Positions 5,351 to 41,391 of a DNA stretch of 64,000 nucleotides are shown here, in pieces (the first letter of the stretch is position 1; each line of letters begins with the position of its first letter). Origin of the DNA: Phycisphaerae bacterium. GTDB lineage: Bacteria; Planctomycetota; Phycisphaerae; UBA1845; Fen-1342. Location of the stretch: assembly GCA_030428945.1 (NCBI GenBank), contig JAUIEC010000001.1:156438-220437 (forward strand). Direction: 5' to 3'. The notes beneath the pieces were generated by a model. The model searched no databases, was not told the DNA's origin, and worked only from the letters and a program-made list of their open reading frames with translations. A program made the position numbers and the translations under genes.

Positions 5351-5400
5351 CTTACTTGCTTACTTGCTTACTTGCTTACTCGCTCACTTAGTGACAGTTT
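5338..5400 (-). repeat. GCAAGTRA heptamer tract (family A) in sense orientation directly at the stop of minus-strand gene 5388-7160
   Basis: The plus-strand text cttgcttacttgcttacttgcttactcgctcacttag contains the gene stop (TAA on the minus strand). The tract follows it in the gene sense. Confidence 0.8.
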
Positions 5401-7160
5401 CGGCCGAAGTTGCGGAGCACGACGGCCAGGTCGCTGAGGGTGACCGCCTGGTCGCCGGTGACATCGCCGGCCTGGGTGGCGGTTCGGCCGAAGTTGGTCA
5501 GGACCGTCTCGAGGTCGGCCAGGTCGATCGTCGCGCTGCCGTCCGTGTCGCCCGCGCAGGTCTCGGCCAGGAGCAGGCGCTGGTTGACCGGCACGTCGTG
5601 CAGTTCGCTGACCGTTCCGGACGCCGGCCAGGTGACCCAGACGCGGTGCAGCACGCTGACCGGGCGATCGAAGCCGAAGTGGGCGAGCGTCTCGTTCTGT
5701 GACATGAAGTTGCTGGCCGCCCGCAGTTCGCGCATCTGGACGGGGCTTTCGGGGGTGGCCTGCACGCGGACGACGGCGCCGATGCCTTCACGGCTGGTGA
5801 GCGTGCCGCGGAGGGTCACCTGCAGCCAGGCCCGCTGGCTGCCGCCGTCGTTGCGGTACAGCATCGGCGTGTCGGCGTTGTTGGCGATGAACAGGTCCAG
5901 GTCGCCGTCGCGGTCGTAGTCGAAGACGACCAGTCCCTTGCCCGAGCGGGTGTCGGTCAGCCCGACCGAGGTCGAGACCTCGGGCATCAGGCCCGGGCCG
6001 TCGTTGCGCCAGAGCTTCATCGGATCGTGGTTGAAGCGGTCCTCGTTGGTCAGGAACGGGAAGTCGACGCCGTTGGTCATCACCAGGTCGAGGTCGCCGT
6101 CGTTGTCGTAGTCGAGGAACGAAGCGCCCCAGCCCCAGCCGCCATCGCGCACGCCGCGGGCGTCGGTCTGATCGCTGAACAGCGAGTCGCCCTCGTTCTG
6201 GTAGAAGCGGTTGCCGCTTCCGTCCCAGTCGCCGAACGGTGCGTTCGGGTCGAAGATCGCGGTGACGAACCAGTCGAGGTCGCCGTCGTTGTCGTAGTCG
6301 CCGATCGCCGAGCCCATCCCGTTCTCGTCGGTCCCGACCCGGGCCGCTTCGGTCACATCCTCGAAGCTCCCGTTGCGGCGGTTGCGGTAGTAGCGGCTCG
6401 TGACGAAGTCGCCGGCGTGAACCAGGTCGGCCCAGCCGTCGCCGTCCATGTCGCTGAACGCGCCCGACCAGCCCTCGACCTCGTCCCGGAAACTGACGCC
6501 CTGCCGCGGAATCCGCTCGAAGACGCGGGCCGCTTCGGTCACGTCGACGAACGCGCCCCCCTCGTTGTGATACAGCGCGTTGGCCGGGTTGTCGGCCGAC
6601 CAGGTCCAGACCACCAGGTCCAGCCTGCCGTCCAGGTCGTAGTCGCCGAAGGCCGCGCTGCTCGGGCCGCGCTCGACGCCGCCGGTCATCGCCACGCCCC
6701 AGGCGGCCGCCTCCTCGCGAAACGTGCCGTCGCCGTTGTTCAGGTAGAGGAAGTTCTGCCCGTTGCGGTTGATCGTCAGCAGGTACAGGTCGACCCAGCC
6801 GTCGTTGTTGACGTCGCCCCAGATGCAGCCCGAACTGCGGCCGCTGAAGTCGACGCCGGCCGTCGCGGCCACATCCGCGAAGGTTCCGTCGCCCAGGTTG
6901 CGGTACAGCAGGTTCGGCTGGCGGACGCGGGTGACGTACAGGTCGACCCAGCCGTCGTTGTCGAAGTCGGCCGCGGCGGCGCCGCCGACCATGTAGGCGA
7001 GACTGGCGTTCGGGCCGGCGAGCGGGATTCCGTCCCAGTGGCTGGCCGAGACGCCGGCGGTGGTCGTTACGTCGGTGAAGGTCACGACCGGGTCGTCAGC
7101 GCGGGCGATGCCGCTCAACCCACAGAGGGCGATCACCACCCGCCATTGCGGCTTCCACAT
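5388..7160 (-). CDS. FG-GAP repeat / ASPIC-UnbV (CRTAC1-like) secreted protein with C-terminal dockerin-type repeats
   Basis: Repeated DxDGDGxxDL and FxNxGDGTF motifs. The C-terminus GDTDGSATIDLADLETVL...GDVTGDQAVTLSDLAVVLRNFG is dockerin type I-like. Signal peptide after the internal Met (MWKPQWRVVIALCGLSGIARA). The ORF track begins at a TTG upstream. Confidence 0.8.
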   Translation of the reverse strand: MWKPQWRVVIALCGLSGIARADDPVVTFTDVTTTAGVSASHWDGIPLAGPNASLAYMVGGAAAADFDNDGWVDLYVTRVRQPNLLYRNLGDGTFADVAATAGVDFSGRSSGCIWGDVNNDGWVDLYLLTINRNGQNFLYLNNGDGTFREEAAAWGVAMTGGVERGPSSAAFGDYDLDGRLDLVVWTWSADNPANALYHNEGGAFVDVTEAARVFERIPRQGVSFRDEVEGWSGAFSDMDGDGWADLVHAGDFVTSRYYRNRRNGSFEDVTEAARVGTDENGMGSAIGDYDNDGDLDWFVTAIFDPNAPFGDWDGSGNRFYQNEGDSLFSDQTDARGVRDGGWGWGASFLDYDNDGDLDLVMTNGVDFPFLTNEDRFNHDPMKLWRNDGPGLMPEVSTSVGLTDTRSGKGLVVFDYDRDGDLDLFIANNADTPMLYRNDGGSQRAWLQVTLRGTLTSREGIGAVVRVQATPESPVQMRELRAASNFMSQNETLAHFGFDRPVSVLHRVWVTWPASGTVSELHDVPVNQRLLLAETCAGDTDGSATIDLADLETVLTNFGRTATQAGDVTGDQAVTLSDLAVVLRNFGRNCH

Positions 7161-7381
7161 CACGATTGCACTCCCGCAGCGCGGTCCGAACGGACCCGAC
7201 AGAATTTCGCGCTGTCTACCAGCCGTCGCCCGAAGCGGCAACGAAGTGATTCAAACTCGCATTGTATCGCGCAGCCCGCACGACACAGAAGACACTGCTC
7301 AGCAGCTCAAGAGCAGTACCGCCGGAGCGCGAGCGACAGCAGGCTTGCTCCCTCGCTCCCTGGCTCCCTCGCTCCCTCTCC

Positions 7382-9142
7382 TCAGTGACACGCCCGGCCG
7401 AAGTTGCGCAGCAGGAGTGCCAGGTCGCTCAGTCCGACCAGGCCGTCGGCGTCGAAGTCGCCTTCGCCGGGGCCGGCGGCCGGTCCGCCGAAGCGCACCA
7501 GCAGTTGCTCGAGGTCGTCGAGCGCGATCGACAGGTCGCCGTTCGTGTCGCCGGCGCAGGGCTCGGTCACGAGGATCCGCTGGTTCAGCGGCACGTCGGT
7601 CAGGCGCTGCGTCAGTCCGCTGGCCGGCCAGGTCACCCGGACCTCGGCGACGCTCGTCACTTCGCGGTCGAAGCCGAAGTGCGCGATCGGTTCGTTCTGC
7701 GACAGGAAGTTGTTGCCGCCGGTCATCTCGTGCATCTGGACCGGGCTGTCGGCCGTGGCCTGCACGCGGATCCGGGCGCCGAGTCCGGCCGAGTTGGTCA
7801 GCGTGCCGCGCAGGGCGACCTGGAGCCAGTCGCGCTGATTGCCGCCGTCGTTGCGGTACAGAACCGGCATCTCGAGGTTGTTGGCGATGACGATGTCCTG
7901 GTCGCCGTCGCGGTCGTAGTCCAGCACCGCCAGGCCCTTGCCGCTGCGATCGTCGTCAAAGCCGAGGGCCGCGCCGGTCTCGTTCATCAGGCCGCCGCCG
8001 ATGTTCTCCCACAGTCGCACCGGGGTGATGTTGAACAGGTTCTCGATGAACGTGTACGGGTAATTCACCCCGTTGGTCATCGCCAGGTCGAGGTCGCCGT
8101 CGTTGTCGTAGTCGAGGAACGAAGCGCCCCAGCCCCAGTCGCCGTCCCGGGTGGTCGTCACATCGGTGTAGTCCGAGAACAGCGAATCGCCCTCGTTGCG
8201 ATAGAAGCGGTTCCCCGTGGTCCCCCACAGGCCGACCTGGTCGTCCCAGATCGACGTGACGAACCAGTCCAGGTCGCCGTCGTGGTCGTAGTCGCCGAGG
8301 GCCGAGCCCATTCCGTTCTCGTCGGTGCCAAGCTGACCCGCCACCGTCCGGTCACTGAAGGTTCCGTCACGCTCATTGCGGTAGTAGCGGCTCGTCAGGA
8401 AATCGCCGGCCGTCACCAGGTCGACCCAGCCGTCGTTGTCCATGTCCGCGAAACTGCCGGACCAGCCGAACACTTCGCGGCCGCCGATCCGTCCGAACAC
8501 GTTGGCCGCCTCGGTCACCTCGGTGAAGTGTCCGCTGCCGTCGTTCTGGAACAGGGCGTTACCGGGGTCCGTGAAGGACCACTCCCAGACCACCAGGTCC
8601 AGGTCGCCATCCAGGTCGTAGTCGCCGAAGGCCGAACTCGAGTAGTAGCGGTCCTCGCCGCCCGCCATCGCCACGCCCCGGGCGGCCGCGTCCTCGGTGA
8701 AGGTTCCGTCGCCGTTGTTGATGTACAGCAGGTTGACCCCGTTGCGGCGGAAGACGGTCACGTACAGGTCCGGCCAGCCGTCGTTGTTGACGTCGCCCCA
8801 CATGCCGCCGGCGCTGCGTCCGCTGAAGTCGACGCCGGCCGTCGCGGCGACATCCTCGAAGGTCCCGTCGCCGAGGTTCCGCCACAGGCTGTTGGGGGTC
8901 AGCAGGCGGGTGACGTACAGGTCGGTCCAGCCGTCCTGGTCGAAGTCGCCGGCCGAGACGCCCGCGACCATGTACCAGTAGTCGACTTCGCCGGGCTGGT
9001 TCGGCAGCACGCCGTCCCAGTGCATGACCTCGATGCCGGCGGCGGCGGTCACATCGGTGAAGCCGACCGGTGTGGGATCCAGCGCCAGGCCCGGAACGGC
9101 CGGCGCGAGCAGCGCAATCGAACTCAGAACGATCCGCCTCAT
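7382..9142 (-). CDS. FG-GAP repeat / ASPIC-UnbV (CRTAC1-like) secreted protein with a C-terminal dockerin-like domain (tandem paralog)
   Basis: Co-linear similarity to 5388-7160 (GVDFSGRS..GDVNNDGW.DLY, UnbV-like RVTWPASG). Signal peptide MRRIVLSSIALLAPAVPGLA. Followed by a GGGAGCGA tract at 7344-7381. Confidence 0.8.
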   Translation of the reverse strand: MRRIVLSSIALLAPAVPGLALDPTPVGFTDVTAAAGIEVMHWDGVLPNQPGEVDYWYMVAGVSAGDFDQDGWTDLYVTRLLTPNSLWRNLGDGTFEDVAATAGVDFSGRSAGGMWGDVNNDGWPDLYVTVFRRNGVNLLYINNGDGTFTEDAAARGVAMAGGEDRYYSSSAFGDYDLDGDLDLVVWEWSFTDPGNALFQNDGSGHFTEVTEAANVFGRIGGREVFGWSGSFADMDNDGWVDLVTAGDFLTSRYYRNERDGTFSDRTVAGQLGTDENGMGSALGDYDHDGDLDWFVTSIWDDQVGLWGTTGNRFYRNEGDSLFSDYTDVTTTRDGDWGWGASFLDYDNDGDLDLAMTNGVNYPYTFIENLFNITPVRLWENIGGGLMNETGAALGFDDDRSGKGLAVLDYDRDGDQDIVIANNLEMPVLYRNDGGNQRDWLQVALRGTLTNSAGLGARIRVQATADSPVQMHEMTGGNNFLSQNEPIAHFGFDREVTSVAEVRVTWPASGLTQRLTDVPLNQRILVTEPCAGDTNGDLSIALDDLEQLLVRFGGPAAGPGEGDFDADGLVGLSDLALLLRNFGRACH

Positions 9143-20370: not shown

Positions 20371-22932
20371 TCACTCTTTCGCTGCGCCGGCTGGTTTGTG
20401 CAGGGCCTGCCAGCGGGCGTGCTGCGCTGGCTGGTCGGTGGCCTGATAGAGGTCGACCAGGCCGCCGATGCCGCGCTGGGTGTAGGGGTGCTCGTCGCCG
20501 ACCTGGTCGCGGAGAGTTTTGACGCCGGTCAGCAGCAGCGGTTCGGCCTCGGCGGGGCGGCCGACGGTCAGCAGGGCGGTTCCGAGCCGGCACTGGTAGT
20601 CGCCGAGGCGCCAGTGGTTTTCGGGCAGTGATTCGGTCGCGCCGGCCAGGGCTTCGGTGAAGTGTTCGAGGGCCAGTTCGGTTTCGCCGCGGGCCAGCAG
20701 GATTTCGCCGACGAGGCTGAGCGTCAGCATGGTTTCCTCGTGGGAGAGGCCGAGGTCGGCCCGGCGGGCGGCGAGGGTCTGGCGGGCGAGGGTCTCGGCC
20801 TCATCCAGTTCGCGGACCAGCAGCAGGCTGGACGCGAGGTTGTGTCGGCTGGTCAGGGTGTCCGGGTGGTTCTCGCCGAGGACCCGTTCGCGGATTTCGA
20901 GCAGGGAGCGCATCAGCGCGATCGCTTCGTCCTGTCGGCCGAGGTTCTTCAGCACGAGTGCCAGGTTGTTGCGGACGCTGAGCGTGTGCGGGTGTTCGTC
21001 GCCGAAGCGTTCGGCCAGGCCGGCCTCGGTCTGTCGCAGCAGCGGTTCGGCCTCGGCGGACTTGCCGATTTCCCACAGCAGCAGCGCCAGGCTGTTGCGG
21101 GTTCCGAGTGTCAGCAGGGCGTCGGGCTGGGTTTCCTCGAGGCCGGCCAGGGTTTCGCGCAGCAGGGCCTCGGCTTCGTCAAGTCTGCCGAGCGACTGCA
21201 GCAGGTTGCCGAGGCTGCTGCGGGCGGCGCGGGTGTTGCGGTGGTTCGGGCCGAGCAGTCGCTGGCGGATGGTCAGCAGGCGGCGTTTCCAGTACTCGGC
21301 GTCGTTCAGCTTGCCGCGCTGCTGCAGGGCGCTGGCGTAGTTGTTCATCGTGATCTGGGTGTGGTCGTGGTCCTCGCCGAGCACCTCGACCCGCGTGTCG
21401 AGCGCCTGGCGGAGCGTCTCTTCGGCCTGTTCCAGCTTGCCGAGTCCGAGGAACGCGGTGCCGAGGGTGTGCTGCAGGCCCGCCCGGATCTCGGGGTTTT
21501 CGGCGAACTCGGTCTCGGCATGCGGGGCGGCCCAGGTCAGCATCTCCGAGATCCGCACATCGCCGCCTTCGCCCTGCGTCGGGTCGGCCGAGGCGAGGAT
21601 CTTCCGCAGGAACTCGTTGATCGCCGTGACCTTCTCGGCCTCTTCCTCGGCCAGCGTCTGTGCCCGGCGGGTTTCCTGGAGGCGCGTGTCGGCCAGGTCG
21701 AGGGCCTCGATCGCCCGGTTGCGGTCCGCGTCGGCCTGGCGGCGGAGCGTTTCCGCCTGGCGGTAGAGGACGCCCATCCATGCGCCGAACGCGAGCACCA
21801 GGCCGAACAGCACGCCGGCGGCCGCGAAGGGGGCCTTGTGACGGGCGACCAGTTTCCGCAACTGGTAGCCGAAGGTGTGCGGTGTGGCGAGGATCGGTTC
21901 GTTGCCGAGGTAGCGTTCGATGTCCTCGTTCATGGCGGCCGCGCTCTGGTAGCGGCGGGCGGGGTCTTTCTCGATCGCCTTGAGGATGATCGCTTCGAGG
22001 TCGGCGTCGATGCGCGGGTTGAGGGTGCGGGGGCGGACGGGGTCCTGTTCGCAGATGACGCGGAGGGCGTCGAGCAGTTGCGTGCGGTCGACTTCGTAGG
22101 GCAGCCGCAGCGTGAGCAGTTGGAAGAGGATGATGCCGAGGGCGTAGACGTCGGTCCGCAGGTCGATCTCGTCGGGGTTGCCGCGGGCCTGCTCGGGGCT
22201 CATGTAGTGCAGGGTGCCCTGGATCCGGCCGACCTCGGTGACGATGGTGTGTTCGTCGCGTTCGTCGTCGGTGATCCGGGACAGGCCGAAGTCGAGGATC
22301 TTGGGGTTTCCGGTCGGGGTGACGATGATGTTGGACGGTTTCAGGTCGCGGTGGATCACGCCGCGCTGATGGGCGTAGTGGACGGCGTCGCAGATCCGGC
22401 GGAAGAGGTCGAGGCGGGCCTGCAGGGTCGGTTCGCCCCGGGCGGCGAAGCGCCCGAGCTGGACGCCCTCGACCAGTTCCATCACGAAGTACTGCAGGTT
22501 GCTGTCGCTGCCGTCCGCGGCGTGGATCGCGGCGATCGCGGGGTGCTTCAGGCGGGCGAGGGCCTCGGCCTCGCGCTGAAAGAGGCGCAGGTGGTACTCG
22601 TCGAGCGTGCGGCCGTGGAAGACCTTGACGGCCACGCGTCGGCGGGGCTGTTCCTGTTCGGCCTCGTAGACGATGCCGCTGCCGCCGCGTCCGATTTCGC
22701 GGAGGACGCGGTAGCCGGCCAGGTGCGGAATGGCCTGGGCGGGTGCGGTGCGGACGGCGGGTTCGGCCAGTCGGGCGATGCTGCCGCTGACCTGGAGGTT
22801 GGCGGAGACGTCGTCGAACTGCTGGCGGCAGTCGGGGCAGGCGTCGAGGTGGCTGCGGAGCTGGAGCGAGAGCGACTCGGTCAGGTCTTCGCAGGCGAGG
22901 GCCTCAAGTTGTTCGAGGTCCGGACACGGCAC
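20371..22932 (-). CDS. Ser/Thr protein kinase with an N-terminal zf-HC2 anti-sigma-like zinc finger, a TM segment and a C-terminal TPR array
   Basis: HLDACPDC (H-x3-C-x2-C). Kinase subdomains GxGxxG (GRGGSG), VAVK, HRDLKPSN, DFG, SPE. Hydrophobic helix about aa 380-400. More than 8 TPR-like repeats. Confidence 0.9.
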   Translation of the reverse strand: MPCPDLEQLEALACEDLTESLSLQLRSHLDACPDCRQQFDDVSANLQVSGSIARLAEPAVRTAPAQAIPHLAGYRVLREIGRGGSGIVYEAEQEQPRRRVAVKVFHGRTLDEYHLRLFQREAEALARLKHPAIAAIHAADGSDSNLQYFVMELVEGVQLGRFAARGEPTLQARLDLFRRICDAVHYAHQRGVIHRDLKPSNIIVTPTGNPKILDFGLSRITDDERDEHTIVTEVGRIQGTLHYMSPEQARGNPDEIDLRTDVYALGIILFQLLTLRLPYEVDRTQLLDALRVICEQDPVRPRTLNPRIDADLEAIILKAIEKDPARRYQSAAAMNEDIERYLGNEPILATPHTFGYQLRKLVARHKAPFAAAGVLFGLVLAFGAWMGVLYRQAETLRRQADADRNRAIEALDLADTRLQETRRAQTLAEEEAEKVTAINEFLRKILASADPTQGEGGDVRISEMLTWAAPHAETEFAENPEIRAGLQHTLGTAFLGLGKLEQAEETLRQALDTRVEVLGEDHDHTQITMNNYASALQQRGKLNDAEYWKRRLLTIRQRLLGPNHRNTRAARSSLGNLLQSLGRLDEAEALLRETLAGLEETQPDALLTLGTRNSLALLLWEIGKSAEAEPLLRQTEAGLAERFGDEHPHTLSVRNNLALVLKNLGRQDEAIALMRSLLEIRERVLGENHPDTLTSRHNLASSLLLVRELDEAETLARQTLAARRADLGLSHEETMLTLSLVGEILLARGETELALEHFTEALAGATESLPENHWRLGDYQCRLGTALLTVGRPAEAEPLLLTGVKTLRDQVGDEHPYTQRGIGGLVDLYQATDQPAQHARWQALHKPAGAAKE

Positions 22933-22942
22933 GCGGGCATCC

Positions 22943-23542
22943 TCACAGGGCGATCACTTCCATGTCGGTCTGCAGTTGCCGCACGCGTTTCAGCACGCGG
23001 TGCTTGGCGGTATAGACGGCGGCCCGCGACATGCCGAGCTGATCGGCGGCCTGGTCGGCGGTGTGTCCTTCGCAGACGGTCAGGGCGAAGGCCGCGTAGG
23101 TCTGGGCGTTGACCTCGGTCTGCACGCGGGTCAGGCAGCGGTTCAGCAGGTTCCGCTGCCACTCCTCGTCGAAGCAGCGGGTCGCCTCCTGCTCGTCCGG
23201 CAGCGAGGCCCAGAAGGCGGTGTCCGCGCTGACCTGCTGGTCGTTGCCGCTGCGGCGTCGCCGGCGGCGCAGATTGAGCGCCTTGCGGTAGGCGATGCCG
23301 AACAGCCAGGAGCTCAGGCGGCCTTTCTCGCGCTCGTACTTGCCGCGGCGGAGGGCCTCGGCGAAGTCGAGCAGCGTCTCCTGGGCGCAGTCCTCGGCCT
23401 CGGCCTCGGTCAGGCCGATCCGGCGGGCAAAGCGCACCAGCGGGTCCTGGAACCGTCCGGTAAAGCGGTTCCAGGCTTCCTGGTTGGTGAACTCGCGCAG
23501 GCCGAGCAACAGCGTCGAACTGGTAACCCACTCGTTGGTCAA
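22943..23542 (-). CDS. ECF-type sigma-70 family RNA polymerase sigma factor
   Basis: Region 2-like FARRIGLTEAEAEDCAQETLL and a region 4 HTH (LGMSRAAVYTAKHRVLKRV). About 200 aa. Co-directional with, and 10 bp from, the kinase gene. Confidence 0.85.
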   Translation of the reverse strand: MTNEWVTSSTLLLGLREFTNQEAWNRFTGRFQDPLVRFARRIGLTEAEAEDCAQETLLDFAEALRRGKYEREKGRLSSWLFGIAYRKALNLRRRRRRSGNDQQVSADTAFWASLPDEQEATRCFDEEWQRNLLNRCLTRVQTEVNAQTYAAFALTVCEGHTADQAADQLGMSRAAVYTAKHRVLKRVRQLQTDMEVIAL

Positions 23543-23701: not shown

Positions 23702-26056
23702 GTGACGCCGATTGTCGGCGGGAGGATGCCAATGCCGTCAGCGAGTCGCCCCGCCAACCAGGCCGACTTCACCTTCGAGATCGATCAGCCGGACACGCCC
23801 GCGCTGCGGGTGACCGGCTTCCGCGGCCAGGCCGCGCTGAGCACGCTGTTCCACGTGCAGGTCGACCTGGCGTCGGATGAACCGGCGCTCGACAAGGCCG
23901 CGCTGCTCGGGCAGGCCTGCCGGCTGACGCTCCGGTCGCCGCGCGGCGATCGGTTCATCTCGGGCATCGTCCGCGCGCTGGCCCGCACCGGGCAGGGGTC
24001 GCGGGTGACGCACTACGCGGCCGAGATCGTGCCGGTGCACTGGTACCTGACCCGCCGGCAGCAGTCGCGGATTCTGCAGAGTCACCTCTGCACGGACATG
24101 AGTGTCCCGGGCGTGATCCAGCACGTGCTGGAAAAGGCCGGCATTCCGGACACGCACTTCCGCTTCGCGTTGCAGGGCACCTATCCGCAGCGTGAGTGCG
24201 TCGTGCAGTACCGCGAGACGGACATGAACTTCATCGCGCGGCTGATGGAGATCGAAGGCCTGCACTTCTTCTTCGAGCACGAGGCGGACCGGCATGTGCT
24301 GGTGATCGCCGACGGCGACGTCGCGCACGTGCCGGGCGAGGGGATCGAGGAGATCGCCTTTCGCGCGCCGACCGGCCTGGTGCCGGCCGAGACCTGCGCG
24401 TTCGAACTGGAGGATCGGCGGGCGATCGAGGTCGACGCGGTTTCGCTGGACGATTTCGACTTCAAGAATCCGGCCCAGCAGTTGCGGGCCCGGCTGGAAG
24501 GTCCGGACGCGCCGGCCCTCGAGACGGTCGACTATCCCGGCTGCTACGTGACCCGCGGCGATGGCGAGCGCTACGCCCGCGTGCGACTGGAGGCCGAGCA
24601 GGTCGGGCGGCACGTCGTCCGCCTGCGGGCCAATGTCCGCGGGCTGCGCCCGGGCTCGACCTTTCACCTGGTCGATCATCCGGCCGCCGAGTGCAACCGC
24701 GAGTACCTGGTGATCGCGGCCGAGGAGCAGGCCGCCCAGCCACAGAGCGTGACGAACGAGGCGGGCGCGGCCGAGGCCCCGCAGTACCGGGTGCTGCTGA
24801 CGCTGATTCCGGTGGAGGTGCCGTACCGGGCGCCGCTGGACACGCCGGTCCCGCGGGTGGCGGGCAGCCAGACGGCGCTGGTGGTCGGTCCGCCGGGCGA
24901 GGAGATCTGGCCGGACGAGTACGGACGGGTCAAGGTGCAGTTCCACTGGGACCAGGCCGGGACGTACAACGAGGAGAGTTCGGCCTGGATCCGGGTCAGC
25001 CAGGGGTGGGCCGGCGGGCGTTACGGGATGTTCTTCCTGCCGCGGGTCGGGCAGGAGGTGGTGGTCGATTTCCTGGAGGCGAACCCGGATCGGCCGCTGA
25101 TCACGGGCAGCGTCTACAACAAGGACAACATGCCGCCGGTGCAGTTGCCGGAGGACAAGACCTGCAGCACGATCAAGTCGCGCAGCACGGTCGGCGGGGG
25201 CGGGGCGAACGAACTGCGGTTCGACGATCGCAAGGACGAGGAACTGCTGTTCCTGCACGCCCAGAAGAACCTTCACCTGCGGGCGCTGAACGACGCGATC
25301 GAGACGATCGGGGCGAACCGGCACTCGCACGTGTCGGGCGACGTGATCAGCGAGGTCTCGAAGAACGTCTCGACCGCGATCGAACTGGATCGCTGCGAGC
25401 AGATCGGCGGGAACGCCTCGCTGTCGATCACGGGTGACCAGATCGAGGTGGTGTCCGGCAATCAATCGGTCGATGTCGGCGGCGGGCAGACCTTGACCTG
25501 CGGCGGCACGGTCGTGGTCGAATCGAGCACGGGCATCACGCTGAAGGTCGGCGGCAACTTCCTGACGATCGACCCGAGCGGGATCTACCTGATGGGTACG
25601 GTCGTGCACGTCAACGGCGCCGGCGCGGCTCTGAACGGCACGTCGCTCGAAGCGCTCGAGACCGGCGAGGCGGCCGTGGCGGCCACGACCGAGCCGGGCA
25701 CGGACGTCACCTACCAGGCCGATCCGGATACGCCGGGACAGATCGAGGCGACGCTGCAGCAGGTCGCCGACGCGGACGAGGACCAGGCCGAAGACGAGGC
25801 GAGCTGGGTCGAGATCGAACTGGTGGACCAGAACGGGCTGCCGGTGGCCGGCGAGGCCTGGGAACTGATTTCGCCGAGCGGGAAGACCTACAGCGGCAGC
25901 CTGGACGCCAACGGCCGGTCGCACGTGGCCGTCGATCAGCCGGGGACCTGCCAGGTCAGCTTCCCGCGACTCGACCGGCGGGCCTGGTCGCGGACAGGCG
26001 GAGAGCAGGCGGCCGCGACGGCCGCGGGTGGCGCGACGCAGGAGGGCTCGGCATGA
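23702..26056 (+). CDS. vgrG: Type VI secretion system spike protein VgrG
   Basis: gp5 OB-fold hallmark RVGQEVVVDFLEANPDRPLITGSVYN. gp27-like N-terminal domain and a beta-helical repeat region (GNASLSITGDQIEVVSGNQSVDVGGGQ...). About 90-aa C-terminal extension after an acidic linker. The start may be M9 or M11 (23726 or 23732). Confidence 0.9.
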   Translation: MTPIVGGRMPMPSASRPANQADFTFEIDQPDTPALRVTGFRGQAALSTLFHVQVDLASDEPALDKAALLGQACRLTLRSPRGDRFISGIVRALARTGQGSRVTHYAAEIVPVHWYLTRRQQSRILQSHLCTDMSVPGVIQHVLEKAGIPDTHFRFALQGTYPQRECVVQYRETDMNFIARLMEIEGLHFFFEHEADRHVLVIADGDVAHVPGEGIEEIAFRAPTGLVPAETCAFELEDRRAIEVDAVSLDDFDFKNPAQQLRARLEGPDAPALETVDYPGCYVTRGDGERYARVRLEAEQVGRHVVRLRANVRGLRPGSTFHLVDHPAAECNREYLVIAAEEQAAQPQSVTNEAGAAEAPQYRVLLTLIPVEVPYRAPLDTPVPRVAGSQTALVVGPPGEEIWPDEYGRVKVQFHWDQAGTYNEESSAWIRVSQGWAGGRYGMFFLPRVGQEVVVDFLEANPDRPLITGSVYNKDNMPPVQLPEDKTCSTIKSRSTVGGGGANELRFDDRKDEELLFLHAQKNLHLRALNDAIETIGANRHSHVSGDVISEVSKNVSTAIELDRCEQIGGNASLSITGDQIEVVSGNQSVDVGGGQTLTCGGTVVVESSTGITLKVGGNFLTIDPSGIYLMGTVVHVNGAGAALNGTSLEALETGEAAVAATTEPGTDVTYQADPDTPGQIEATLQQVADADEDQAEDEASWVEIELVDQNGLPVAGEAWELISPSGKTYSGSLDANGRSHVAVDQPGTCQVSFPRLDRRAWSRTGGEQAAATAAGGATQEGSA

Positions 26057-26955
26057 GCAACCCGACCGACGATTCGTTTTCCGTGCGACTGAGCCAGGCG
26101 GCGGGGGGCGGGCAGGCGCCGGCCGATCCGCGGGAGGAGATTGGCGAACTGCCGAACCGCAGGTCGACGGAGCCGGCTGCGCAGCCGCAGGAGGCCGCGT
26201 TCAATCCGCTGGACTCGTTCGCGGCCCGGCTGGAGTCGCACCTGGACCAGGCGGCGCCGCAGCAGCAGGAACCGGCGGCGCCGCGCGTCGCGCCGGACGC
26301 GGTGATCCGGGCCGAGGCGTGCGGGGCCGGTGCGCACGAGGTGGCCCGCGGCGCGTGCCTGGCGGGGATCGCGCGGCAGGTCGGGCACGACTGGGAGACG
26401 ATCTGGAACGACCCGGCCAACGCGCCGGTGCGCGAGGCGCGTCAGGACCCGAACCTGCTGCTGGCGGGTGACCGGCTGCACATTCCGCCGCAGGAGGCCA
26501 AGCAGGAGTCGGTGGCGACGGAGGCCCGGCATCGGTTCGTGCTGCACAGCGCGCCGGTGCGGCTGGTGCTGCAGTTGAAGGACGAGGCCGGCAAGCCGCG
26601 GGCGAACCTGGCGTACACGCTGGAGGTCGACGGTGCGGCGCGGGAGGGCTTCACCGATCCGAGCGGGACGCTGCGCGAGTTCGTGCCGGCCGAAGCCCGC
26701 GAGGCGCTGCTGACGCTGACGGAATCGGGCGAGGCCTATCCGTTGCGGCTGGGGGCCCTGCAGACGGCCGAGGCGTGTGGCGGCGTGCAGGCGCGGCTGA
26801 ACAACCTGGGTTTCCACTGTGGTCCGCCGAGCGGGCAGTGGGACGAGCGGACGCGGCTGGCGCTGAAGGCATTCCAGGGTCGCGAGGGCCTGCCGGCGCA
26901 CGGAGAACTGGACGAGGCGACGCTGCAGCGCCTGCGGGCGACGCACAGGAGTTAG
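26053..26955 (+). CDS. LysM-like plus peptidoglycan-binding (PGBD_1-like) domain protein, no signal peptide
   Basis: LysM-like HEVARGACLAGIARQVGHDWETIWNDPAN...LLLAGDRLHIP. PG-binding-like GVQARLNNLGFHCGPPSGQWDERTRLALKAFQGREGLPAHGELDEATLQRL. ATGA overlap with the vgrG stop. Confidence 0.7.
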   Translation: MSNPTDDSFSVRLSQAAGGGQAPADPREEIGELPNRRSTEPAAQPQEAAFNPLDSFAARLESHLDQAAPQQQEPAAPRVAPDAVIRAEACGAGAHEVARGACLAGIARQVGHDWETIWNDPANAPVREARQDPNLLLAGDRLHIPPQEAKQESVATEARHRFVLHSAPVRLVLQLKDEAGKPRANLAYTLEVDGAAREGFTDPSGTLREFVPAEAREALLTLTESGEAYPLRLGALQTAEACGGVQARLNNLGFHCGPPSGQWDERTRLALKAFQGREGLPAHGELDEATLQRLRATHRS

Positions 26956-27014: not shown

Positions 27015-28028
27015 ATGGCGGTGTCAACGACGACTTCGAGTGATGCGATCTTTGCGGACTGGATGCAGAAGGCGCTGACGTTTCCGGATCCGGGGCATGG
27101 TCACCGGCACAAGCCGATCAACATCTCGTGCTGGATCGCGCTGCATGCCGAGCAACTGGTGGTGACGGTGCACACGGTCTGTTACTCGCAGTATTTCAAC
27201 GACACGCATCGCCAGGGCTGGACCAGCGGGATCAAGTCGTGCTGGGACGGCGAGTTCCTGATCGAGGCCGACGCGACGCCGGGCGGCGGGCACGATGTGC
27301 CGCTGTCGGTGCCGGGCACCGAGACGCCGGCCGTGCTGCGGCCGCAGACCTGGCAGGTTCCGATCGTGTTCGATCCGCGGTTCTACAAGAGCGGCGATCC
27401 GAATGCGCCGGCCAACGCCGACTGTTCGCCGCCGATTCATCGGATCGTCGACCCGGCCGTCGAGCGCGGTGACACGAACAACTGGTGGGGCAAGGACAGG
27501 AATCCGCAGGACACGATGGGGCACATGGCCGCCCACGAGTTCGGGCATTACATCGGCTGCGGGGACGAGTACGGGCTGCACGAGGCGGCCTTCCAGAGCG
27601 TGGTCGGTCGGGCGCCGCGTCCGGACGAGCGGATGGTCGGCAAGGACGGCGTCCCGAACGGGCTGTACAGCACGCACGACAGCATCATGGGGTTGTACAC
27701 GGATCAGTTTCCGAAGCGGCGGCACGCCGAGATGATCGTGGACTGGCTGAACGAGACATACGTGCCGCGGCAGAGCCTGGTCGAGCGCTTCATCCTGCGG
27801 ACCTATGACGAACTGGGCGGGGATCCGATCGGGGAGAACGACTGGTCGTGGTACACGGTCCAGGAGGGCGAGTGGCTGTCGCACATCGCCGAGCGGCACG
27901 GCTACACCTGGGATCAGCTCTACAACTACGACCCGGTCGGCGGCGAGCCGAACCGCATGCTGCTGAGCAGCGGCGACCCGAACCTGATCTATCCCGGCGA
28001 ACAGATTCGCGTTCCGAACGGAGGCTGA
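27015..28028 (+). CDS. HExxH zinc metallopeptidase-like protein with a C-terminal LysM domain (candidate T6SS effector)
   Basis: HEFGHYIGCGDEYG (HExxH plus a downstream acidic GDEY). C-terminal LysM YTVQEGEWLSHIAERHGYTWDQLYNYD...GDPNLIYPGEQIRVP. No signal peptide. GGAG located before the ATG at 27015. Confidence 0.7.
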   Translation: MAVSTTTSSDAIFADWMQKALTFPDPGHGHRHKPINISCWIALHAEQLVVTVHTVCYSQYFNDTHRQGWTSGIKSCWDGEFLIEADATPGGGHDVPLSVPGTETPAVLRPQTWQVPIVFDPRFYKSGDPNAPANADCSPPIHRIVDPAVERGDTNNWWGKDRNPQDTMGHMAAHEFGHYIGCGDEYGLHEAAFQSVVGRAPRPDERMVGKDGVPNGLYSTHDSIMGLYTDQFPKRRHAEMIVDWLNETYVPRQSLVERFILRTYDELGGDPIGENDWSWYTVQEGEWLSHIAERHGYTWDQLYNYDPVGGEPNRMLLSSGDPNLIYPGEQIRVPNGG

Positions 28029-28030
28029 AC

Positions 28031-28858
28031 GTGCCGGCTGCCGCCCGCGTACTGGACACGACTTCGCACGGTACACCGCTGATGCCCGGACCCGGCAGCA
28101 GTGACGTGCTGATCGGCATGCTGCCGGCCTGGCGGGCGCTGCCGGCGGGAGTCGGCGCGGGGCTCGAATCGGCCTCGTCGCAGATGCAGTCGCTGATGTC
28201 GTCGCCGAGCCTGACGCCCGTGGATGCGACCGCCACGCTGGTGCAGGTGCAGACCGGGCTGGCGCAGTCGGCGGCGGCGGCCACCGCGGACGGAAACATG
28301 TCGGCCCTGCCGAGCACGGCCTCGGCGATGGTCAGCCTGAACGCGACCAACGCGGCGCTGACGGCCACCTACCTGGCGGCCGCGGCGGTGCCGGGCGGCG
28401 CGGCGGCCGCGGGCGTGGCGTATGCGCAGGGTCTGCAGGCGGCGGCCGCGGCAACCGTCGGGGCGGCGTTCCAGGCGATCGCGGGGACGACCGACCTGCA
28501 CAACTGTCCGATTCCCTGTCCGATCCCGCCGCACGGACCGGGGGTGGTGACGCAGGCGAGCACGAGCGTGTTCGTCAACAACCTGCCGGCCGTGCGGCAG
28601 GCGGACAACGTGGTCGAGGCCTGCGGCGGTTCGAACGCGATCGCGATGGGGGCGCCGACCGTGTTCATCGGGGACCAGGGCGGCAGCAGTTCGCCGGCGG
28701 GGCAGAGCGGGTCCTCGGTGACGGGGGCGGTGGCGAGTTTCGTGGCGACGGTCGCGGACGTGATCGCGGCGGCGACGGTGATCATGCAGAACGAGGCGGC
28801 GGCGACGAGCGGTGCGGCGTTGTGCGAGGTCTGCGACGATTCGGGGGCGGGCACATGA
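28031..28858 (+). CDS. PAAR-domain protein with an Ala/Ser-rich insertion
   Basis: GTG start gives MPAAARVLDTTSHGTPLMPGPGSSDVLIGMLPAWRA (PAAR motif 1). The C-terminal HNCPIPCPIPPHG...NLPAVRQADNVVEACGGSNAIAMGAPTVFIG is PAAR motif 2. GGAGG RBS located 5 nt upstream inside the preceding gene. Confidence 0.8.
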   Translation: MPAAARVLDTTSHGTPLMPGPGSSDVLIGMLPAWRALPAGVGAGLESASSQMQSLMSSPSLTPVDATATLVQVQTGLAQSAAAATADGNMSALPSTASAMVSLNATNAALTATYLAAAAVPGGAAAAGVAYAQGLQAAAAATVGAAFQAIAGTTDLHNCPIPCPIPPHGPGVVTQASTSVFVNNLPAVRQADNVVEACGGSNAIAMGAPTVFIGDQGGSSSPAGQSGSSVTGAVASFVATVADVIAAATVIMQNEAAATSGAALCEVCDDSGAGT

Positions 28859-29241
28859 AGCCGGTGTTCACGCTGCGCGACGCGCACCTGGAGGCGTTTG
28901 CCGCGGCGGCGCGGGAGAGCTTCGAGGATCGCATGCTGGCGCACGTCCGCCTGGCGTTTCGCGCGCGGCATGACGAACTGGGCGCGGTCGAGTCCCGCCG
29001 CTGGGTCCGCAGCGGGATCGAGCGGGCGGCCGACTACGGGATCACGGTCGAACGGGACGTCAGTCGCTTCATCCGGCTGATGTTTCAACTGGGTGAGAAC
29101 TTCGACCGCGGGCAGGCCCGGGCGATGCTGGCGCGGCGCGACGTGCCGGCCGCGCTGCGGTTGAACCGGGTGCTGACGATGGCGGTCAGTTCGGGGGCCC
29201 TGCCGGCCGGGACGGTGCGGGCGGTGGAGGCGGAGTCGTGA
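28855..29241 (+). CDS. Hypothetical 128-aa cytoplasmic protein in the vgrG operon
   Basis: ACATGA stop/start overlap with the PAAR gene. Coding-like bias. No signal peptide or recognisable motif. Confidence 0.55.
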   Translation: MKPVFTLRDAHLEAFAAAARESFEDRMLAHVRLAFRARHDELGAVESRRWVRSGIERAADYGITVERDVSRFIRLMFQLGENFDRGQARAMLARRDVPAALRLNRVLTMAVSSGALPAGTVRAVEAES

Positions 29242-30425
29242 GGCTGACAAAGCTGACGCTGCACTACCTGCTCTGCGTGCAGTCGCAGGAGGGGGCGACG
29301 GTCGGGGGCATCAACGTGTCGGATGACGAGATCCGGCTGGAGCTGGGCAGCCTGGTGGTTGCGCGGGCGAACATGCTGCCGGGTCAGACGCTGACCGACT
29401 TCAGCCAGAGCGTGTTCGAGTTCGAGCACGCCCCGGAGTTCCGGCTGTACGAGGAGGACGTCGAGTACGTCGGGGACGGCGACGACCTGCTGGGGGCCTG
29501 GACGGTCGAGACGGTCAAGGGCGTGCACGTGGCGCACTTCGCGCAGAGCGGGGCCTACTACATGCTGCAGTACGAGGTCGAGCCGCCGCCGGATCCGACC
29601 AGCCCCTCGGAGCGGTGCGGCGCGCCGCCGGGCGAGACGCTCGCGTACGTGACCTGCGGGCACGACGTGCCGGAGTCGCAGCGGTTCGACGAGTACCGCG
29701 AGATCATCGAATCGCTCGGGGTGTTCCTTGAGGACGGCTACAACCTGATCGGGCTGCGGTGCCTGGACTACGAGACGCGCGAGATCGTCGAGAACACCTG
29801 GAACGCCTGGAACGACACGCTGGCGGTCGTCTGGCTGGACGCGGCCGGGACCAAGCGGGTGGTCGAGTACCAGGGCACCTGCGATCCGGGCAAGCACTCC
29901 AAGACCGCGCACGAGGATGGCGAGGATGCCAATCCGAACGGGCTGGCGCACCTCTGTGACGGGCAGTGGGAGTACGAGTGCGGCTATCACCACGGCAGCT
30001 ATCCGTGCCTGGTGCAGAAAGAGGACGTGACGGTCTGGCGGAGCCAGTTCGGCGATGACGGCTGGGCGAACAACACCTTCGAGGAAGGCGAGCAGACCGA
30101 CACGGGCATCTTCGGGATCAACATTCACGCCTCGAAGGACAACTCGTCGGGCGTCTACAACTGGTCGGCCGGCTGCCAGGTGTTCCGCAGTTCGAAGGGC
30201 GCGGGCACGCGTTACGCCGAGGTGATGGGCTCGGGGACCAAGGGCGATTCCGAGCACGGCGGATACGTCGGCGAGCATTTCGAGACGCACGACGTGATCT
30301 ACTACACGGTCGTGACGGCCCGGGAGAAGGGCACCGAAGAGGACAACGTGCCGTGCGCGTGCGAGGCCGGGGACGGTGAGGTCGGGGCCGGGAGCGTGGC
30401 GTGTCCACAGGAGGGTGCCTCGTGA
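29238..30425 (+). CDS. Hypothetical 395-aa protein with a YkuD (L,D-transpeptidase fold)-like Cys/His motif (candidate effector)
   Basis: GTGA overlap with the preceding gene. The segment GIFGINIHAS...GVYNWSAGCQVFRS resembles the YkuD HG...SHGCIR active-site region. No signal peptide. Confidence 0.5.
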   Translation: MRLTKLTLHYLLCVQSQEGATVGGINVSDDEIRLELGSLVVARANMLPGQTLTDFSQSVFEFEHAPEFRLYEEDVEYVGDGDDLLGAWTVETVKGVHVAHFAQSGAYYMLQYEVEPPPDPTSPSERCGAPPGETLAYVTCGHDVPESQRFDEYREIIESLGVFLEDGYNLIGLRCLDYETREIVENTWNAWNDTLAVVWLDAAGTKRVVEYQGTCDPGKHSKTAHEDGEDANPNGLAHLCDGQWEYECGYHHGSYPCLVQKEDVTVWRSQFGDDGWANNTFEEGEQTDTGIFGINIHASKDNSSGVYNWSAGCQVFRSSKGAGTRYAEVMGSGTKGDSEHGGYVGEHFETHDVIYYTVVTAREKGTEEDNVPCACEAGDGEVGAGSVACPQEGAS

Positions 30426-30955
30426 TTGCCGAGCGCGTGCTCGAGCCGCTGCAGCGGGGGCTGCGGGCCGGTGACCAGGCGGGGCTGCACTGGTACGCGG
30501 TGGTCGACGCCGCGCAGCCGCTGGATGCGATCCGGCGGGTGCGGGTGGCGCGGCGCAAGAACCGGACGCTGTACCAGGGACGGCTCGGGGCCCTGGCACA
30601 CGCGGCGGCGCCGTACCTGGTGGAACTGGACCTGCAGGACAACCTGACGGCCTGGCTGCTGGCGCACGGGAGCCAGCACTGGGGGATCCTGCTGCAGTCA
30701 TCGGCCGACTTCGAGACGGTTCGACAGCACCTGCGGCGGTTCCTGGTGGTCAGCGATCCGGAGGGTCGTCGGCAGCGGTTCCGGTTCTACGATCCGCGGA
30801 TCCTGCGTGCGTTCCTGCCGGTCTGCACGGGCGAAGAGGCGGCCAGGTTCTTCGGTCCGGTCAAGCGGTACTACGCGGTGGGGCGCGACCTGCTCGACTG
30901 GGAGCGCTTCTCGGCCGTCTCGCGCGGCGTGCATCGGGAGCAGGTAAGCAGGTAA
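30401..30955 (+). CDS. DUF4123-like protein (T6SS effector adaptor Tap/Tec family)
   Basis: LHWYAVVDAAQPLDAIRRV...RTLYQGRLGALAHAAAPYLVELD matches the DUF4123 LYALxDGA...L(Y/F)xG...APxLV pattern. An alternative GTG start at 30422 overlaps the upstream stop. The last codons and the TAA stop are supplied by the heptamer tract. Confidence 0.55.
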   Translation: MSTGGCLVIAERVLEPLQRGLRAGDQAGLHWYAVVDAAQPLDAIRRVRVARRKNRTLYQGRLGALAHAAAPYLVELDLQDNLTAWLLAHGSQHWGILLQSSADFETVRQHLRRFLVVSDPEGRRQRFRFYDPRILRAFLPVCTGEEAARFFGPVKRYYAVGRDLLDWERFSAVSRGVHREQVSR

Positions 30956-39702: not shown

Positions 39703-41391
39703 ATGTTTCGCGTTATCGGCATTCCTGTCGCGCTACTGTTGTGCGCGAGCACCGGCCCGGCCCAGACATTCAGCGAGGTCAGCGGCCTGCGTGGCGTGGA
39801 TTACCTGGTGGAGGTCACCACCTCGTACGGATCCGGCGTGCTGCTGGCCGACCTGGACGGCGATGACGACCTCGACATGGTCGCGCTCGGGGACCTGGGC
39901 GGGCCCGGCCTGTTCGAGAACGTGGGCAATGCGTTCTTCGTCGAGCATCCGTCGATTCCGCTCGCGTCCGGGGCGGCCGGGATTGCATCGGCGCTGAGTG
40001 CGGCCGACTACGACGGGGACGGCGACCGCGACCTGCTGATCACGGTCTGGGAGGGTCCGAACAGCCTGTTCCGCAATGACGGCAATTTCACGTTCACCGA
40101 TGTTTCGGCGGTGGCGGGGCTGGACGATGACGGGATCGGGATGGGCAGCACCTGGGGCGACTACGACGGCGACGGCTGGCTGGACCTGTACGTCAGCAAC
40201 CGTTCGGGGACGACGCTGTCGGGTGGCGGCCAGGACTTCCAGCCGAACCGCCTGTACCGCAACCTCGGGGACGGCACGTTCGAGGAGCGGGCGGTGCTGG
40301 AGACGGTTGACGCGGGGATCGCTCCGACGCTGCAGGCGACGTTCGTCGATCTGGATCGCGACGGTGACGTCGAACTGTACCTGGCGAACGACAAGGGTTC
40401 GTACTCGAACTGCATGTCGTGGCGGAACCAGTTGTGGGACAACCAGAACGGCAGCCTGGTCGAGATCTCGTCGACGTCGGGCACCGACGTCTGCGTCGAT
40501 TCGATGACGATCACGCTCGGCGACGTCAACCAGGACGGGCTGCTGGACATCTACACGACCAACACGCCCGAAGGGAACGCCCTGATGGTGCAGGATCCGA
40601 ACGGGCACTTCCGCGAGGTGGCCGGCGCATACGGCGTGCTGGTCAATCAGCTCAGTTGGGGCGCGGTGTTGATCGACTACGACCTGGACCAGGATCAGGA
40701 CCTGTATGTCTGCAACGCGACCAGCTTCAACATGATGTTCCGCAACGAGCCGACGCTGCCCTGGCCGCAGGTGGCCTTCGCGCTCGGGCTGGCCGACATC
40801 AGTGTCTCGTACTGCGTGGCCCAGGGTGACCTGGACGACGACGGTGACGTCGACATGATTCTCTCGAGCGACGACACGCGCCTGAAGGTGCTGATCAACA
40901 ACGCGGCGACGGGCAACTCGCTGCAGGTCCGCCCGATCGGTGCCTGGCCGAACTACGACGCGATCGGCGCGACGATCCTGGTCGAGGCGGGCGGCGTCAC
41001 GCAGGTCCGTGCGGTTGCGGCCGGGAGTGCGTACAAGTCGCAGCACGAACTGCGGCAGACCTACGGGCTCGGCGGCCACACCAGCGCGGACCGGATCGAG
41101 ATCATCTGGCCGGGCGGTGAGATGCGGGAACTGTTCGACTACCCGGCCGGCAGTTGGCTGGCGATTCCGGACGGTCTGCTGGGCGACTTCAACCGGGACG
41201 GTATTCTGAATCACCGCGATGCGCGGCGGCTGAAGGGCTGCCTGTCGGCGGCGACGTTCGAGCCGGGCTGCGAGTGTTTCGACTTCGACGGCGACGCGGA
41301 CGTGGACGTGCTGGACGCGATCGAGTTCGGCCTGCGGCGCGGCGGTGCGACGAGGGTTCCGGCCGCGTCGGGCGGCGGGGTGATTCCGTAA
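39703..41391 (+). CDS. FG-GAP repeat / ASPIC-UnbV (CRTAC1-like) secreted protein with a dockerin-like C-terminus (third paralog)
   Basis: DLDGDDDLD, DYDGDGDRDL, GDYDGDGWLDLYV and the UnbV-like VRAVAAGSAYKSQHE. C-terminal GDFNRDGILNHRDARRLKGCL and FDGDADVDVLD. Signal peptide. Confidence 0.8.
   Translation: MFRVIGIPVALLLCASTGPAQTFSEVSGLRGVDYLVEVTTSYGSGVLLADLDGDDDLDMVALGDLGGPGLFENVGNAFFVEHPSIPLASGAAGIASALSAADYDGDGDRDLLITVWEGPNSLFRNDGNFTFTDVSAVAGLDDDGIGMGSTWGDYDGDGWLDLYVSNRSGTTLSGGGQDFQPNRLYRNLGDGTFEERAVLETVDAGIAPTLQATFVDLDRDGDVELYLANDKGSYSNCMSWRNQLWDNQNGSLVEISSTSGTDVCVDSMTITLGDVNQDGLLDIYTTNTPEGNALMVQDPNGHFREVAGAYGVLVNQLSWGAVLIDYDLDQDQDLYVCNATSFNMMFRNEPTLPWPQVAFALGLADISVSYCVAQGDLDDDGDVDMILSSDDTRLKVLINNAATGNSLQVRPIGAWPNYDAIGATILVEAGGVTQVRAVAAGSAYKSQHELRQTYGLGGHTSADRIEIIWPGGEMRELFDYPAGSWLAIPDGLLGDFNRDGILNHRDARRLKGCLSAATFEPGCECFDFDGDADVDVLDAIEFGLRRGGATRVPAASGGGVIP

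Follow-up and report, generated by a model that had tools for sequence, protein, structure and literature searches.

What is a small protein with no export signal and no catalytic motif doing directly behind a vgrG gene? The question is raised by a 64,000-nucleotide stretch of DNA from a Phycisphaerae bacterium (Planctomycetota; assembly GCA_030428945.1, contig JAUIEC010000001.1, positions 156,438 to 220,437), referred to here as the window, in which a gene on the forward strand (26053..26955) encodes a protein of 300 amino acids, the helper. By its open reading frame (ORF), its Pfam match and a structural model, the helper is a signal-less protein composed of a LysM fold, a beta-sandwich and a PG_binding_1 domain. 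The original prediction, made from the sequence alone, saw in it either a non-enzymatic co-effector or anchor delivered with the VgrG spike, or an adaptor that bridges the C-terminal extension of VgrG to a downstream peptidase. The reading favoured here, with a probability of about 0.6, is that the helper serves an orphan vgrG island of a type VI secretion system (T6SS) as an adaptor that carries cargo on the spike, or as a secreted co-effector.

We infer the physical contacts, the secretion and any binding of peptidoglycan in this reading as follows. It is proposed that the helper is synthesised in the cytoplasm, translationally coupled to VgrG. The LysM fold and an adjoining linker with the motif RHRF would dock on a transthyretin (TTR)-like domain of ~65 amino acids at VgrG's C-terminal end, and the C-terminal half of the helper, i.e. 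the beta-sandwich and PG_binding_1, would hold the 337-amino-acid, HExxH-bearing peptidase-like protein encoded next downstream. The cargo would then exit the cell on the spike, and in the periplasm of the target cell the LysM and peptidoglycan-binding (PG-binding) folds may also retain it on the cell wall.

The gene and its domains

The helper ORF opens at the first start codon past an in-frame stop. Its ATG (26053-26055) overlaps the TGA of vgrG (26054-26056) in the shared sequence ATGA, as the original prediction had noticed, and a perfect Shine-Dalgarno-like AGGAGG (26040..26045, forward strand) lies 7 nucleotides before the ATG, within the 3' end of vgrG. Is this the real start? A homologue of 70% identity (P0002) is conserved with the helper from residue 1, which shows that it is. 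A mis-called start that masks a signal peptide was considered and rejected, as there is no in-frame start upstream and the N-terminus is conserved in P0002. The helper itself has no signal peptide or transmembrane segment (the Kyte-Doolittle maximum over 15-mers is 0.15 in the first 70 amino acids and 0.99 overall), and neither a signal peptide nor a hydrophobic segment is found in any member of its family. Only one protein among the listed homologue matches, P0052, has a signal-like N-terminus, and it is an unrelated PG_binding_1 protein. An enzymatic role was rejected because no catalytic family in Pfam or NCBIfam is matched, and a role as immunity protein because the gene lies upstream of the cargo and lacks a signal peptide. 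The absence of an export signal and of a catalytic motif, both asserted from the letters alone, therefore holds, and a better start with a cleavable signal was looked for and none was found.

The first 90 amino acids (26053..26322) form a variable N-terminal extension that is absent from the core members of the family, which are ~207-213 amino acids long and begin right at the LysM fold. The extension is rich in alanine (20%) and proline (12%), in agreement with the original description, and carries two copies of a short helix motif, D-S-F-x-x-R-L (amino acids 7-17 and 54-64), where AlphaFold2 places helices at amino acids 8-17 and 52-65 with a low predicted local distance difference test (pLDDT) score. 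The two copies, DSFSVRLSQAA (26071-26103) and DSFAARLESHL (26212-26244), follow the pattern [DE]x[FY]xxR[LIV]xxx[LM]. The same pattern, predicted helical, occurs in a subset of family members in one to three copies (L022, L012, L014, L018, L019, P0005, P0007, P0025 and P0032), in N-terminal extensions only and never in the core.

An AlphaFold2 model built on 49 relatives (mean pLDDT 80) divides the helper into four parts: the poorly ordered extension, an alpha/beta domain at amino acids ~93-147, a beta-sandwich at ~167-233 and a three-helix PG-binding domain. The alpha/beta domain (26329..26493, forward strand) is a LysM by fold and by its relatives, although not by the sequence of the helper itself: Pfam LysM (PF01476) does not reach its gathering threshold there, and gives no match even at E<=1. 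Since Foldseek searches with the whole model were dominated by the PG-binding domain and the beta-sandwich, the segment was modelled and searched alone. Amino acids 90-152 then gave a beta-alpha-alpha-alpha-beta layout with a pLDDT of 87, and LysM domains ranked at the top of the PDB matches, with template-modelling (TM) scores of 0.6-0.72; among these are 4uz2, the LysM of a T. thermophilus NlpC/P60 protein, the LysM of intimin and that of the phiCD508 baseplate tube-initiator (9gb2_S, TMq 0.72). Pfam LysM is matched by 18 of the 49 family members, and the family profile finds LysM chains in the PDB at E 0.007-0.01. NSD2 matches to this region in a single-sequence PDB search were spurious. 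The LysM claim of the original prediction thus stands on fold and relatives, and fails only for a Pfam match in the helper itself.

The linker that follows ('K.E..ATE.RHRF', amino acids 148-166, 26494..26550) is highly conserved in the family, with the consensus TE.RHRF.RKG.P; it is the most conserved segment between paralogues of the same locus and is kept with the LysM in toxin-fused forms. Next comes the beta-sandwich (26551..26751), six strands modelled with pLDDT > 90, which Foldseek relates to SpyCatcher/CnaB, transthyretin-like and SusC NTE folds, i.e. a prealbumin or CarboxypepD_reg-like type. A comparison by hhalign relates it also to the C-terminal domain of VgrG (probability 81%, E=1.2e-5). 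The C-terminal PG_binding_1 domain (amino acids 245-294, 26785..26934) is clear from sequence (PF01471, E=1.6e-12, 47.8 bits against a cutoff of 23), as had been predicted; 47 of the 49 family members match it, and the family profile finds the PG-binding domains of SleB, CtpB and KZ144 in the PDB at E 4e-8 to 4e-5. The helper has SGQWDERT here in place of the family consensus DGxxGPxT. Most members end in a conserved H-G-[SC], and the helper of the window in HRS. The domain map of the original prediction was therefore right about its two modules and missed a third domain, the beta-sandwich, together with the conserved linker.

How widespread is this architecture? A scan of one genome per GTDB species, with a 7-sequence alignment as query, yielded 264 relatives in Planctomycetota, Acidobacteriota, deltaproteobacterial lineages, Gammaproteobacteria, Gemmatimonadota and Zixibacteria; a cultured myxobacterium, Pyxidicoccus fallax, is among the carriers. 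So many relatives go well beyond what chance would give. A profile search of 1.84 billion cluster representatives returned 3,979 proteins at E<=1e-30. Among the best 150 of these, most match the whole length of the profile without interruption and the rest are long proteins with multiple PG-binding repeats. Public names of the relatives are 'peptidoglycan-binding protein', 'hypothetical' or, mistakenly, 'amidase'.

Half-size paralogues (163-197 amino acids) are also present, and consist of the beta-sandwich and a degenerate PG-binding domain without LysM and without signal peptide. In several loci they lie directly 3' of a full-length helper. Examples are L016 10107-10670, L017 14241-14741 and 17385-17912, L042 10657-11148, L052 10664-11167, L069 10649-11164, L076 10645-11190 and L079 5550-6143.

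Linkage to VgrG and to variable cargo

The vgrG gene of the window (23702..26056, forward strand) encodes 784 amino acids by its longest ORF, or 774 if the start at 23732 in the public gene call is used, and is recognised by TIGR03361 (E=8e-168), Phage_GPD, Phage_base_V and Gp5_trimer_C. It ends in a beta domain of ~65 amino acids (amino acids ~692-764, 'SWVEIELVD...CQVSFPRLD..AW', 25775..25993) of prealbumin/TTR-like type, with weak Pfam similarity to CarboxypepD_reg, SpaA and prealbumin, and it is here that the LysM protein is proposed to dock. Does the domain accompany the helper family in general? It is present in all long VgrG ORFs that lie before a family gene, either fused or as a separate gene of 108-139 amino acids, and two second VgrGs in the same loci, which are followed by other genes, lack it. 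The domain ends <=700 nucleotides before the LysM in 61 of 102 full-length members and lies farther upstream in 24 more. The reverse was examined by scanning metagenomes with the VgrG C-terminal domain alone: among 73 instances with at least 500 nucleotides of downstream DNA, a family match starts within 600 nucleotides downstream in 43. At least one of the apparent negatives is a LysM-toxin fusion that has diverged, and in several more the ORFs that follow are of housekeeping type. The family thus appears tied to one specific VgrG C-terminal domain, which favours an adaptor. Where the domain is a separate gene, it stands between vgrG and helper, as at L002 6828-7208, L005 9599-9997, L017 9558-9956 and L060 9447-9851.

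The gene order around the family points the same way. ORFs were called in 78 distinct loci from species genomes of several phyla, and family members, VgrG, PAAR and DUF4123 were marked; most of these loci repeat the order seen in the window. The full-length members start <=150 nucleotides from a vgrG stop in 56 of 102 cases; vgrG is farther upstream in 28, often where helper-plus-ORF pairs are repeated and the member is in the second or third, and is absent from the fetched DNA in 18. A single locus can hold up to three full helper copies, each before a different ORF. The ORF after each member is usually 10-60 nucleotides away, large and hypervariable: ~88 such ORFs fall into 43 BLAST clusters, one of which comprises 23 acidobacterial proteins of ~670 amino acids, followed by PAAR. 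Most of the representatives have no Pfam match, a few show similarity to Metallophos, M19 dipeptidase/Amidohydro_2 or OmpA-like families, and HExxH motifs can be read in some translations. Small conserved genes that stand behind vgrG and before large polymorphic ones are classically the mark of T6SS adaptors or co-effectors.

In the window, the ORF in this position is a putative cargo of 337 amino acids (27015..28028, forward strand, with the start of the public gene call), which begins 59 nucleotides downstream of the helper. Its translation carries a zinc-peptidase-like motif, HEFGH..GCGDEY, and a C-terminal LysM (Pfam E=9.7e-6). A search of 5.8 billion proteins gave one homologue, partial and of 54% identity.

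Fusions offer a further line of evidence. Relatives of the helper are encoded in three forms: stand-alone, as part of a PAAR/TTR-like/family fusion, and with only LysM and linker fused to an HExxH toxin. The second form, a single chain of PAAR, a TTR-like domain and the complete family module, is found at L053 702-2399 and L063 8861-10723; each of these is followed by a related ORF of 378 amino acids. The third form is represented by large HExxH-containing bodies directly after vgrG (L080 15130-17094 and 18055-19962, L063 5613-7841, and L134), which keep the linker, as their hidden Markov model (HMM) matches extend to about position 112-116. From the fusions, the smallest unit that accompanies the VgrG domain is LysM plus linker.

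Which half of the helper does what? Full members were aligned to the family HMM and their identity was compared domain by domain, with special attention to 28 same-locus paralogue pairs, which have one VgrG in common and different ORFs downstream. These pairs exceed the family background in the LysM (0.60 vs 0.51) and the linker (0.63 vs 0.44), and stay at background in the beta-sandwich (0.38 vs 0.37) and the PG-binding domain (0.44 vs 0.45). Conversely, between-locus pairs that share a cargo cluster are, at matched LysM identity, more alike in the beta-sandwich (by 0.11-0.19) and the PG-binding domain (by 0.06-0.14), with no consistent difference in the linker. This suggests that LysM and linker track the shared VgrG while beta-sandwich and PG-binding domain track the cargo; the comparison is suggestive only, as the pairs are non-independent and dominated by the one 23-member acidobacterial cargo cluster. 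The pattern would fit a two-part adaptor, with an N-terminal half for the spike and a C-terminal half for the cargo.

Such helpers have a precedent. A survey of 130,825 vgrG loci (Wang et al. 2023, Commun Biol, PMC10673891) lists LysM and PG_binding_1 among six domain families that recur there as stand-alone proteins, fused to the C-terminus of VgrG or fused to the N-terminus of toxins. In Ketobacter alkanivorans GI5 a stand-alone LysM protein, Kalk_10460, shows no toxicity, and the downstream toxin needs it in order to co-immunoprecipitate with VgrG; a fused NlpC/P60 toxin no longer binds VgrG once its LysM is deleted; PG_binding_1 was reported only in gammaproteobacterial families (PMC10673891). 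The helper agrees with this class in its LysM domain (by fold), its place between vgrG and a toxin-like gene and the spike and toxin fusions of its relatives. By analogy, it very probably works like, and is a member of, the published LysM class of VgrG-effector loading helpers, a likeness drawn from domains, gene order and fusions. Like Kalk_10460-type proteins, it has no toxicity domain, occurs in the same three encoding forms and has the same proposed linking role; it differs in that its LysM is joined to a TTR-like beta-sandwich, PG_binding_1 and a variable N-terminal extension, and in its hosts, which are Planctomycetota, Acidobacteriota and others.

A second precedent is Tae17 of A. baumannii, which binds the TTR C-terminus of VgrG17 through an N-terminal region made up of an Ig-like domain and a LysM (PMC11796386). 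As is proposed for the helper, a LysM adjoined by a beta-sandwich and a short strand-forming linker is matched to the TTR-like C-terminal domain of a VgrG, and the effector follows its cognate vgrG. In Tae17 the loading module lies within the toxin and the Ig-like domain precedes the LysM, whereas the helper stands alone as a protein and runs from LysM through linker to beta-sandwich. A LysM is also present in M. xanthus TsxE, whose gene lies behind vgrG2 (PMC5801462).

Weighing the explanations

Could the helper instead be an independent passenger, a non-enzymatic wall-binding co-effector that rides on VgrG by its LysM without carrying the downstream protein? The peptidase-like neighbour would then use its own LysM, at the C-terminus, to load on a different subunit of the VgrG trimer. 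That LysM does match the family LysM profile (HMM positions 34-86, with the DPNL..PG motif in common); moreover, the PG_binding_1 domain is strongly conserved in the family, and PG-binding domains are known on T6SS spikes, the C-terminal chain of V. cholerae VgrG3 (4nso) being matched by the profile. This account is nevertheless rather unlikely. Pfam LysM is matched by none of ten representative downstream ORFs, matches to the family profile are rare among the downstream ORFs, co-variation with cargo type is seen in the beta-sandwich and PG-binding domain, the published stand-alone LysM protein is needed for effector-VgrG binding, and the PG-binding domain in the window departs from the family consensus. 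If the helper stayed in the cytoplasm as a chaperone, to stabilise or load the cargo, like the DUF4123, DUF1795 and DUF2169 adaptors, its classical-adaptor position between vgrG and effector and its lack of an export signal would be expected. Such a role is improbable, as a module fused whole to the C-terminus of PAAR, or by its LysM and linker to toxins, must leave with the spike, which argues against a purely cytoplasmic chaperone, and as Pfam and NCBIfam show no homology to the three adaptor families. The helper is like DUF4123 (Tap/Tec), DUF1795 (Eag) and DUF2169 proteins as a conserved gene before polymorphic cargo; it has no sequence or fold relation to them, and these classical adaptors are thought to stay in the producer while the helper module is implied to be exported.

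The two folds of the helper usually bind peptidoglycan, and a cell-wall anchor or wall-passage accessory on the producer side, of the TagL, TagN or TagP kind, would put them to that use. It is very hard to reconcile with a protein that has neither signal peptide nor membrane anchor and thus has no Sec or Tat route to the producer periplasm, with an orphan vgrG island in whose window no T6SS core genes were found among the ~30 largest ORFs scanned, and with loci that hold up to three full copies, each before a different ORF. Scarcely more can be said for a structural LysM hub inherited from contractile tails, at the junction of VgrG and tube, which we consider the least probable of these explanations. 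LysM serves protein-protein assembly in contractile-tail and extracellular contractile injection system hubs (P2 gpX, Afp7/Pvc7, phiCD508 gp61), and the closest full-length LysM matches of the helper include tail-tube-initiator and contractile injection system baseplate domains (9g8s_T, E=0.0066, as well as 9gb2_S). These hubs are, however, core baseplate parts, often fused to a tube-initiator domain, which the helper lacks; the helper is accessory, multicopy in many loci and cargo-linked, its gene lies 3' of vgrG alongside the cargo, its fusion to the C-terminus of PAAR places it on the tip side and not the tube side, and T6SS is described as having no LysM core component (PMC10673891).

The spike-borne adaptor or co-effector accordingly remains the preferred reading. 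The alternative offered in the original prediction that the data favour is the adaptor between the C-terminal extension of VgrG and the peptidase, given the tie to the VgrG domain, the hypervariable cargo and the published class; delivery with the spike is likely in view of the PAAR fusions. The notion that the two modules act mainly as PG-recognition devices is unsupported as it was stated, since LysM and linker seem to behave as the spike-docking part and the rest co-varies with the cargo.

Several observations weigh against the preferred reading, in addition to the non-independence of the identity pairs and the descriptive nature of the likeness to Kalk_10460. The VgrG-type domain is absent from the fetched locus in 17 of the 102 members, and about a third of the domain-bearing VgrGs have no family member following. 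In the window, the cargo brings a LysM of the helper's subtype and might thus dock on VgrG unaided, and a DUF4123 adaptor in the same operon means that other loading routes coexist. There is also no evident (signal-bearing) immunity gene after the cargo, the next gene being PAAR.

Might the family represent something more general, a repeatable handshake of LysM onto TTR-like domain that can be chained from spike receptor to adaptor to next partner? A TTR-like domain of VgrG or PAAR would take the LysM and linker of the adaptor, the homologous sandwich of the adaptor would take the next partner, and PG_binding_1 would be re-used as a protein-recognition surface, not as a wall binder. In the window the next partner would be the peptidase-like cargo, whose own LysM is of the same subtype, and one interface would thereby serve twice in succession. 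We regard this chaining as a doubtful, tentative idea; if true, tandem adaptor-cargo pairs and the LysM-less half-size paralogues would extend or branch the chain, and several toxins might travel on one spike.

The island and the wider meaning

The helper belongs to a tightly packed operon in the order vgrG, helper, peptidase-like cargo, PAAR, a 128-amino-acid ORF, a 395-amino-acid ORF and DUF4123. The PAAR-domain protein (275 amino acids, 28031..28858, forward strand; PF05488, E=1e-9) starts 3 nucleotides past the cargo stop. The remaining three genes occupy 28855..30955 on the same strand with overlapping stops and starts, and the DUF4123 adaptor (30422..30955) ends the operon. The 128- and 395-amino-acid ORFs have no Pfam match, and PDB sequence searches with the cargo and with the 395-amino-acid ORF gave nothing useful. 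DUF4123 genes normally stand before their effector, and the position of these two ORFs before DUF4123 is an unusual order. Relatives of the 128-amino-acid ORF adjoin DUF4123 in L007, L069 and L074, with one more in L020.

Immediately upstream of vgrG and divergent from it lie genes for a Ser/Thr kinase with TPR repeats (20371-22932, reverse strand) and an extracytoplasmic function (ECF)-type sigma factor (22943-23542, reverse strand), which are possible local regulators of the island. Among the ~30 largest ORFs scanned across the window no T6SS core family was matched, which is why the island is called orphan. Its neighbours include FG-GAP/ASPIC proteins, a radical SAM protein, a reprolysin-like protease and a DEAD helicase, among others. 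Three paralogous FG-GAP/ASPIC-UnbV repeat proteins (5391-7241, 7385-9142 and 39703-41388) are unrelated to the helper.

What does the helper add to the known picture? It is a well-supported and fairly ordinary example from an under-studied phylum. New are the combination of LysM, sandwich and PG-binding domain as a very large family outside Proteobacteria, the definition of a partner domain on VgrG and PAAR, and the domain-wise covariation. The model cautions against automatic annotation of LysM and PG_binding_1 proteins as wall binders, and the suggested division of roles between the two halves of the helper offers a concrete, testable model of how many cargos are fitted to a single type of VgrG. 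T6SS effectors have hardly been explored in Planctomycetota, Acidobacteriota and related phyla, where most of them show no recognisable toxin domain. As the helper is conserved, easily recognised and placed directly before hypervariable ORFs, it offers a marker by which new effector families can be found across thousands of metagenomic loci.

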